A DNA stretch of 63,217 bases from Escherichia coli. GTDB lineage: Bacteria > Pseudomonadota > Gammaproteobacteria > Enterobacterales > Enterobacteriaceae. The notes beneath the pieces were generated by a model. It was not told where the DNA came from. It made no database searches and saw only the letters and a program-made list of their open reading frames with translations. Position 1 is the stretch's first letter; each line of letters begins with the position of its first letter. The position numbers and the translations under genes were made by a program. Shown in pieces: positions 45,008-45,484 of this stretch. The DNA is taken from the NCBI RefSeq assembly GCF_003334255.1, contig NZ_QOWU01000026.1. One strand, 5' to 3'.

Positions 45008-45484
45008 CTATTGCTCAGTGTCGTTCAATGTCGAGTGAGGACATTCGCCCTGCTCTCGTAACAGAGACAGAAGCATGGACACCCCCTCACGATGTGATGA
45101 TTGATGAGTGTCGATCCCTGAATGATTGATGTTGTTAAACTCATACACCTTGCTCAAGGCAAAAGCCTGAACGATATTCCAGAATACCAATGGGTCTGTT
45201 TTCTGCGAATTATTCACTCTTTCAACAGAATTAATTGATTTGTCGTTTTCTGTTATATTGTGTTTGATGTTTTGTTGTCCTTTATTAAGGCGGCAATTTT
45301 GAATATGTTCCTCGTGCTTTTCATTGTCATAAGCATACATCCCGACAAAAACATCTCGCATGTTACGGGATATATTTTCCAGATTCGCCTTTGGTTCCTT
45401 TGTTAAATTTATCACCGATAAATGGTCTTTAAGCGTATCCGCAGCTATTTTCTGAATATCCTCTGGTAAATCTTTAAATTGCAT
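45008..45484 (-). CDS. Hypothetical protein (AT-rich moron-like)
   Basis: 158 aa ORF, markedly AT-rich relative to neighbours; no family recognised. Confidence 0.45.
   Translation of the reverse strand: MQFKDLPEDIQKIAADTLKDHLSVINLTKEPKANLENISRNMRDVFVGMYAYDNEKHEEHIQNCRLNKGQQNIKHNITENDKSINSVERVNNSQKTDPLVFWNIVQAFALSKVYEFNNINHSGIDTHQSSHREGVSMLLSLLREQGECPHSTLNDTEQ

Follow-up and report, generated by a model that had tools for sequence, protein, structure and literature searches.

We describe here ORF158, a 158-codon open reading frame (ORF) on the minus strand of a 63,217-nucleotide stretch of Escherichia coli DNA (contig NZ_QOWU01000026.1 of RefSeq assembly GCF_003334255.1); this whole analysed stretch is referred to as the window. 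In the window, about 37.7 kb of E. coli chromosome precede a prophage that runs to the window end and is of the Shiga toxin (Stx) phage type, lambdoid and Sepvirinae-like. ORF158 is an ordinary accessory gene of a lambdoid prophage, and public phage genomes and the protein family PHROG 1363 already include it. With a probability of roughly one half, we read it as an accessory gene of the early-left operon whose product would be a non-enzymatic binding protein acting early in lytic growth.

All sizeable genes between 43578 and 53369 lie on the minus strand, and their PHROG matches are those of a lambdoid leftward early operon. A preliminary description of the window, made from the sequence alone, had placed a 158-residue ORF in a leftward operon, and this is confirmed by the ATG-initiated frame at 45008-45484 (minus), which is co-oriented with the leftward early genes.

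The ORF158 gene and its product

ORF158 is a real gene and not a chance ORF, because it has identical or in-frame homologous counterparts in phage and E. coli genomes and 15 of the 58 columns of its N-terminal module are invariant across relatives of 36-48% identity. Features of the gene, of the protein segments it encodes and of its 3' flank are as follows (GC, guanine plus cytosine content).

45008..45484, minus: ORF158 coding sequence, 158 codons, ATG at 45484 (from the ORF list)
45491..45496, minus: Shine-Dalgarno sequence GGAGGG of ORF158, 6 nt 5' of the ATG (read from the sequence)
45320..45484, minus: N module, residues 1-55, predicted helical hairpin, shared more widely within the family than any other part
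45206..45319, minus: linker, residues 56-93, rich in N, K, Q and E, of low complexity, predicted disordered, about 30% GC
45011..45205, minus: C module, residues 94-158, second predicted helical hairpin, common to PHROG 25397 proteins
44872..44910, minus: terminator-like hairpin separating ORF158 from the Ea22-like gene, GGCGGCAUCAG...CUGAUGUCCGCC, then C UUUUU (from the terminator scan and the RNA fold centroid)

The computed mass of the product is 18.2 kDa, with an isoelectric point of 5.7 and a grand average of hydropathy (GRAVY) of -0.81; the protein is hydrophilic and mildly acidic and holds no hydrophobic segment. The DNA from 44800 to 45600 is 99.9% identical to that of Escherichia phages PhiR12_3 and GER2, both of which encode proteins 100% identical to ORF158, while 44998-45600 shows about 92% identity with 74 further Stx-type phage records, including P13374, TL-2011c, ArgO145 and PA2. 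Among phages, 74 records contain in-frame homologues, and so do 123 of 5426 complete E. coli genomes. The phage matches come exclusively from Escherichia, Shigella, 'Enterobacteria' or Stx-converting phages; outbreak lineages such as O104:H4 and O157:H7 have Stx-converting phages with this gene. Database entries invariably name the homologues 'hypothetical protein'.

Only one family takes in ORF158 solidly, namely PHROG 1363 (E=2.5e-56, residues 1-139 on profile positions 1-138 of 139), which is annotated 'unknown function'. Residues 92-158, the C module, also match PHROG 25397 (E=5.2e-33), a family with the same annotation; membership of both rests on the profile match and is uninformative on mechanism. 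Pfam, NCBIfam and the PDB sequences were queried with the protein, with an alignment of the whole family and with separate N- and C-module alignments. Pfam gave no match at E<=10 for ORF158 or any of 15 relatives, none of which matched the Ead_Ea22 profile, and NCBIfam returned nothing meaningful for ORF158. Profiles of the family, the N module and the C module found nothing below E=0.05 among the PDB sequences. The best matches from these sources (E=0.03-1.7; ribosomal S1, neoleukin, CagY and pannexin) are to unrelated proteins and were dismissed. The preliminary description had reported no recognisable domain and had left the function unassigned, which holds across Pfam, NCBIfam and the PDB sequences; homology to a structural or housekeeping phage protein, which according to that description would refute its reading, was not found, PHROG 1363 being the only family. 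In PADLOC-DB v2 a single 'CorA-like' match (E=8e-5, 20.8 bits) was rejected as spurious: it spans the low-complexity linker and was reproduced by 0 of 9 relatives, none of which gave a match at E<=1 even though two of them are 82-85% identical to ORF158. Rfam and repeat searches found no RNA or repeat feature in or near the gene.

A scan of 1.84 billion representative proteins yielded 18 clusters of the ORF158 family, with every named match coming from E. coli. Searches with the N- and C-module profiles returned E. coli hypothetical proteins only, many of them partial, without names or fused domains. The family is of narrow range, confined to E. coli-type lambdoid phages. A large share of the N-module homologues are labelled 'partial' and end at contig ends soon after the module; this suggests that assemblies often break at this point, which would fit a multi-copy or variable downstream sequence in E. 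coli draft genomes.

The N module carries the motif M-x-F-K-D-L-P...Q..A...L...K...N..RN.R..F.G.Y. Four PHROGs (9419, 2151, 6937 and 33007) match ORF158 over residues 1-55/81 only, and the C-terminal parts of their members are unrelated. In the C module, 17 of 67 positions remain invariant down to 37% identity. In members of PHROG 25397, this module comes with a different N-terminus and with an additional module of about 90 residues in the middle (M). Family architectures fall into the forms N-C (158, 147, 131, 142 and 129 residues), N-M (180 and 187), N-M-C (260), N'-M-C (220 and 239) and M-C (164 and 166). Family members consist of two or three modules, each of which recombines independently of the others.

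Structure prediction, proposed in the preliminary description as a check, gave a four-helix layout of two hairpins, but in a low-confidence model and without a known fold. The AlphaFold2 model, built from a 19-sequence alignment, has a mean predicted local distance difference test (pLDDT) score of 51.7 and a predicted template modelling (pTM) score of 0.40. Predicted helices at residues 8-23 and 32-66 (pLDDT 65-70) and at 98-117 and 126-144 would form one hairpin per module, and residues 56-99 (pLDDT below 50) are predicted to be disordered. Foldseek comparison of this low-confidence model with BFVD returned as the sole match a 52-residue fragment of the same family from phage phi191.

The slot downstream of yfdQ

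ORF158 lies directly 3' of a yfdQ homologue. We fetched 71 viral contigs containing a YfdQ homologue and tabulated the next downstream gene in 68 of them. The slot is occupied by a member of the ORF158 family in 23 contigs, by a homologue of the HD-domain protein YfdR in 41 and by other genes in 3, with too little flank in the remaining one. Occupancy follows the YfdQ type. Where YfdQ is 97-100% identical to the window copy, as in Stx-type phages, an ORF158-family gene comes next (23 loci), nearly always with its start about 80 nt beyond the point where the YfdQ match ends; a 147-residue allele, for example, follows yfdQ in locus L023. The 41 loci with a YfdR homologue in the slot have a YfdQ of 50-58% identity; YfdR itself is an HD-domain 5'-nucleotidase encoded by the K-12 prophage CPS-53. 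Since the slot is filled by ORF158-family, YfdR or other genes and is never empty in related loci, it is a replacement site, and not an insertion site, within a conserved arrangement. ORF158 thus alternates with YfdR in a defined slot beside the widespread YfdP-YfdQ pair. In phage GER2 (locus L003, 4762-7542), the yfdQ homologue 5' of the identical ORF158 copy is split by an insertion sequence with two transposase genes.

DNA similarity to the Stx phages is unbroken from yfdQ through ORF158 and stops 10 nt past the stop codon (about 44998); the mosaic junction therefore lies downstream of ORF158 and not upstream. Compared with the common 147-residue allele, synonymous divergence (dS) varies along the gene: the N module stands at 0.03, the linker at 0.7-0.75 and the C module at 0.14-0.24, and the linker differs from that allele by an in-frame indel of 11 codons. 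This uneven dS and the clean indel indicate recombination at the module boundaries. The ratio of nonsynonymous to synonymous divergence (dN/dS) of ORF158 is 0.6-0.9 overall and about 1 in some module comparisons, values which come from few substitutions and are confounded by recombination. ORF158 diverges far faster than its neighbour, being 71-73% identical where YfdQ is 97-100% identical, and truncated alleles of 131 residues, fragments and split forms are common in the family.

Relatives also occur away from this slot. Between ydfC and dicB/kil of Rac/Qin-like prophages we find a 129-residue N-C protein (P0022), a 201-residue protein (P0025) and homologues from phage Evi and from the PPompW prophages. 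An N'-M-C relative lies two genes after gene N, and an M-C relative is located 3' of the replication genes in the rightward operon. Every family member examined is in an early operon, at four different places including the slot after yfdQ, and the occurrence of relatives without an adjacent yfdQ means that the family is not tied to YfdQ. The suggestion of the preliminary description that ORF158 had been separately acquired is upheld by the slot replacement, the module recombination and the varied early-operon positions rather than by base composition.

That description had also pointed to a strong local drop in GC. A lower GC is indeed seen, at 39.0% compared to 47.4% in the window (standard deviation 5.4) and 46.5% in its prophage part (standard deviation 4.2), but the drop is only moderate (about 1.5-1.8 standard deviations, the 7th percentile of 477-bp windows in both) and two other genes of the same operon are about as low or lower still (YfdP-like gene 39.9%, orf183 37.3%). 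The GC of codon position 2 is 27%, the lowest among 18 genes compared, and that of position 3 (GC3) is 42%, inside the 32-56% range of the neighbours. In 90-nt blocks, codons of about 60-105 have 30-31% GC and the 3' end has 52%. Since the deficit sits in position 2 and in the linker while GC3 is ordinary, GC is weak evidence for a foreign origin; the low value mostly reflects a protein segment rich in N, K, I, E and Q, and not a clearly foreign base composition.

Proposed role and alternative explanations

Taken together with its place in the operon, these properties lead us to the following proposal. ORF158 would be transcribed after induction or infection by read-through from the early-left promoter pL, as a delayed-early, N-antiterminated gene without a promoter of its own, and would be translated via its own strong ribosome-binding site. 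The product is envisaged as a soluble, all-alpha 18-kDa protein in which a disordered linker of about 40 residues connects two helical hairpins. It would act by stoichiometric binding and not by catalysis, a preference we hold because no catalytic motif or enzyme fold was found. The conserved N module could serve for docking to a partner that is itself conserved, and the exchangeable C module for docking to another partner that varies more. The target would presumably be a host or phage protein in early lytic development, by analogy with Kil, Gam, Ea22 and other small proteins of the pL operon.

Several points weigh against this proposal. Read-through from pL is deduced from gene order only, and the simple promoter scan described below could miss a weak or non-sigma-70 promoter. 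Given the poor model (see above), the two helical hairpins are tentative. No homology links ORF158 to any partner or phenotype, and the high dN/dS and the truncated alleles would also fit a weakly constrained or dispensable gene.

By architecture and context, the closest known proteins are Ea22 of lambda and the Stx phages and other accessory proteins of the exo-xis region, which, like ORF158, are encoded early-left between exo and xis, non-essential, mosaic and of ill-defined function. Ea22 itself is a mosaic whose N-terminal part is conserved while its C-terminal parts are exchanged (PMC10834534). ORF158 differs in having no Ead/Ea22 signature and in belonging to a different PHROG, and it adjoins an Ea22-like gene on the upstream side of the latter. 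The pL-operon proteins of host takeover, Gam, Kil, Ral and Abc2, are likewise small, non-enzymatic and encoded early leftward, and Kil- and Gam-like genes are present in the operon of ORF158; however, ORF158 is homologous to none of the four.

Position points instead to YfdR as the closest comparator. YfdR is an HD-domain 5'-deoxynucleotidase of the cryptic prophage CPS-53 that binds DnaA. ORF158 takes the same place in the order yfdP-yfdQ-X-yfdS/T of a lambdoid early-left operon, and both prophages are integrated at argW. ORF158 might accordingly be a functional stand-in for YfdR, forming one module with YfdP, YfdQ and the Ea22/YfdT-like protein and, for instance, damping DnaA-driven replication initiation. 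Multicopy yfdQ-yfdR-yfdS/T of CPS-53 has been reported to inhibit DnaA-dependent initiation (PMC4776307), and a survey of lambdoid early-left regions found the yfdR-yfdQ-yfdP cluster to be common, with ArgO145 as an example, and yfdQ and yfdP to be without known function (PMC12315714). The occupation of the yfdR slot, the order YfdP-YfdQ-X-(YfdT/YfdS-like) common to the window and CPS-53, and the uninterrupted DNA block of yfdQ and ORF158 in Stx-type phages all fit such a role. We nevertheless hold it to be quite unlikely. ORF158 resembles none of the K-12 proteins YfdP, YfdQ, YfdR, YfdS and YfdT; BLASTP against K-12 YfdR gave no match at E<=10, the HD domain was also not found (Pfam, E<=10), and the predicted all-alpha fold with a disordered linker sets it apart. 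Prophages that lack an adjacent yfdQ also contain family members with these N and C modules (at ydfC/dicB, after gene N and in the rightward operon), and YfdQ is itself functionally unexplained, its model matching no solved fold.

The preliminary description had called ORF158 a moron, that is, in its strict sense, an autonomously expressed cassette active in the lysogen, which would here give superinfection exclusion or defence. The label is not supported in this sense, and we consider the idea very improbable. Like the classical morons (lambda bor and lom, HK97 gp15), ORF158 is variably present among related phages and has a GC somewhat below its surroundings. A terminator-like hairpin follows it in the window. 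In contrast to the classical morons, it lies on the operon strand with close spacing to its neighbours, and it replaces a gene where a moron would be inserted. A simple consensus scan found no sigma-70-like site in the 76-nt spacer between yfdQ and ORF158 (45485-45560), and promoter-like sites in the region number 4 against 5.7 expected, which is at or below chance. A weak site inside ORF158 itself (45330..45302, 9/12 matches) recurs in L023, and is to be read against these chance-level regional counts. The hairpin falls outside the DNA block shared with the Stx phages, and in L023, the sole Stx-type relative checked, the scan gave no terminator-like site after the ORF158-family gene, so that the hairpin probably belongs to the downstream mosaic module and not to a conserved cassette. 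In lambda, internal terminators of the pL operon are read through when the operon is N-antiterminated. The location of the GC deficit mainly in codon position 2, the lack of a reproducible PADLOC defence-model match, and a hydrophilic protein without a transmembrane segment, unlike many exclusion proteins, argue further against a moron.

ORF158 could also act against host defence, a role for which the preliminary description had regarded such genes as candidates, as an immune-system inhibitor whose C module tracks variable host targets. The early expression context, the small size without an enzyme domain, the fast divergence beside a conserved neighbour, the module swapping, the narrow host range and the presence of a Gam-like nuclease inhibitor in the same operon are all in keeping with such a protein, although they are circumstantial and would equally fit any host-interaction or regulatory accessory protein. 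Pfam, the PHROG names and the PDB sequences gave no anti-defence homologue, the dN/dS values carry the limits stated above, and we found no literature on the protein, so that on these sequence-derived grounds an anti-defence role appears unlikely. An extension of this idea, which we regard as improbable and mention as a speculation, takes the N module as the docking domain of a polymorphic early-protein family of E. coli lambdoid prophages whose interchangeable M and C modules are specificity or effector parts aimed at variable host targets such as immune systems; on this view, a modular toolkit for counter-defence or host takeover, with ORF158 as one of its alleles, has displaced YfdR in Stx-type phages. 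At the other extreme, ORF158 could have no function of its own and be an evolutionary leftover, weakly constrained or in decay, that travels with yfdQ. Its dN/dS, the common truncated, fragmented and split alleles, the high predicted disorder and the poor structure model agree with decay. Against this, the reading frame is preserved in all alleles, including across the clean 11-codon indel, the strong ribosome-binding site is kept, the invariant positions of both modules persist in unrelated prophage backgrounds, and the modules recur in several architectures, as junk would not be expected to do; we therefore judge a leftover to be improbable as well.

An early accessory binding protein remains the reading that we prefer. 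Its modular, fast-changing build makes ORF158 a reasonable low-cost entry for phage early-gene screens directed at host interaction or anti-defence, and a positive result in such a screen would help to assign a role to the YfdP/YfdQ cluster. We found no paper that refers to the protein by its accession, locus tag or PHROG number, and topical papers provide context on YfdQ/YfdR and Ea22 only.

Other features of the prophage

The remaining features of the integration site and of the leftward operon are listed below in the order of their coordinates; PHROG in brackets marks assignments from that database.

37754-37828, minus: tRNA-Arg(CCT), argW, the prophage integration site
37949-39193, plus: integrase
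Left of 44237-44851: more anti-repressor genes (PHROG)
44237-44851, minus: Ea22/YfdT/DUF551-like gene, directly 3' of ORF158
45561-46382, minus: YfdQ/DUF2303 (PHROG 210), 52% identical to K-12 YfdQ, 'YfdQ family protein' in RefSeq, directly 5' of ORF158
46446-46793, minus: YfdP-like (PHROG), 57% identical to K-12 YfdP
46868-47455, minus: SSB-like protein (PHROG)
47455-48147, minus: exonuclease, Exo (PHROG)
48144-49163, minus: RecT (PHROG)
49111-49392, minus: Gam-like inhibitor (PHROG)
49706-49918, minus: Kil (PHROG)
49989-50867, minus: anti-repressor (PHROG)
52656-53369, minus: cI-like repressor (PHROG)

The argW gene is also the integration site of the K-12 cryptic prophage CPS-53, which retains yfdP-yfdQ-yfdR-yfdS-yfdT. 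The gene directly 3' of ORF158 (44237-44851) is chimeric: residues 1-42 of its product show 81% identity to K-12 YfdT and represent an Ea22-like N-terminus, and the C-terminal part has matches among DUF551/YfdS-like PHROGs. For strain G1/2, RefSeq shows in this stretch a shorter DUF551 coding sequence and a partial DUF551 pseudogene. Between the repressor and the remaining leftward operon, at 52124-52426 (minus), lies a 100-residue ORF that aligns solely with the final 100 of the 838 positions in a PHROG named 'restriction endonuclease' (E=1.1e-65); it may be a fragment or belong to a mis-named family.

On the strand opposite to the leftward operon, at 42053-42732 (plus), lies a pair of HigB-like toxin and HigA-like antitoxin genes, which related phages annotate as plasmid maintenance killer and antitoxin; this pair is a much better moron candidate than ORF158. 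Adjoining matches at the Rfam gathering level to the C4 antisense RNA (41860-41945, minus) and to the Hfq-binding RNA isrK (41971-42049, minus) are located beside the anti-repressor genes, and the same pair recurs beside an anti-repressor gene in locus L082. Further Rfam matches in the prophage are the sok antitoxin RNA of the hok/sok type (58719-58893, plus), STnc100 (62696-62912, plus) and sRNA-Xcc1 (50665-50753, minus), copies of the last being present also in the related prophage loci L084 and L086.
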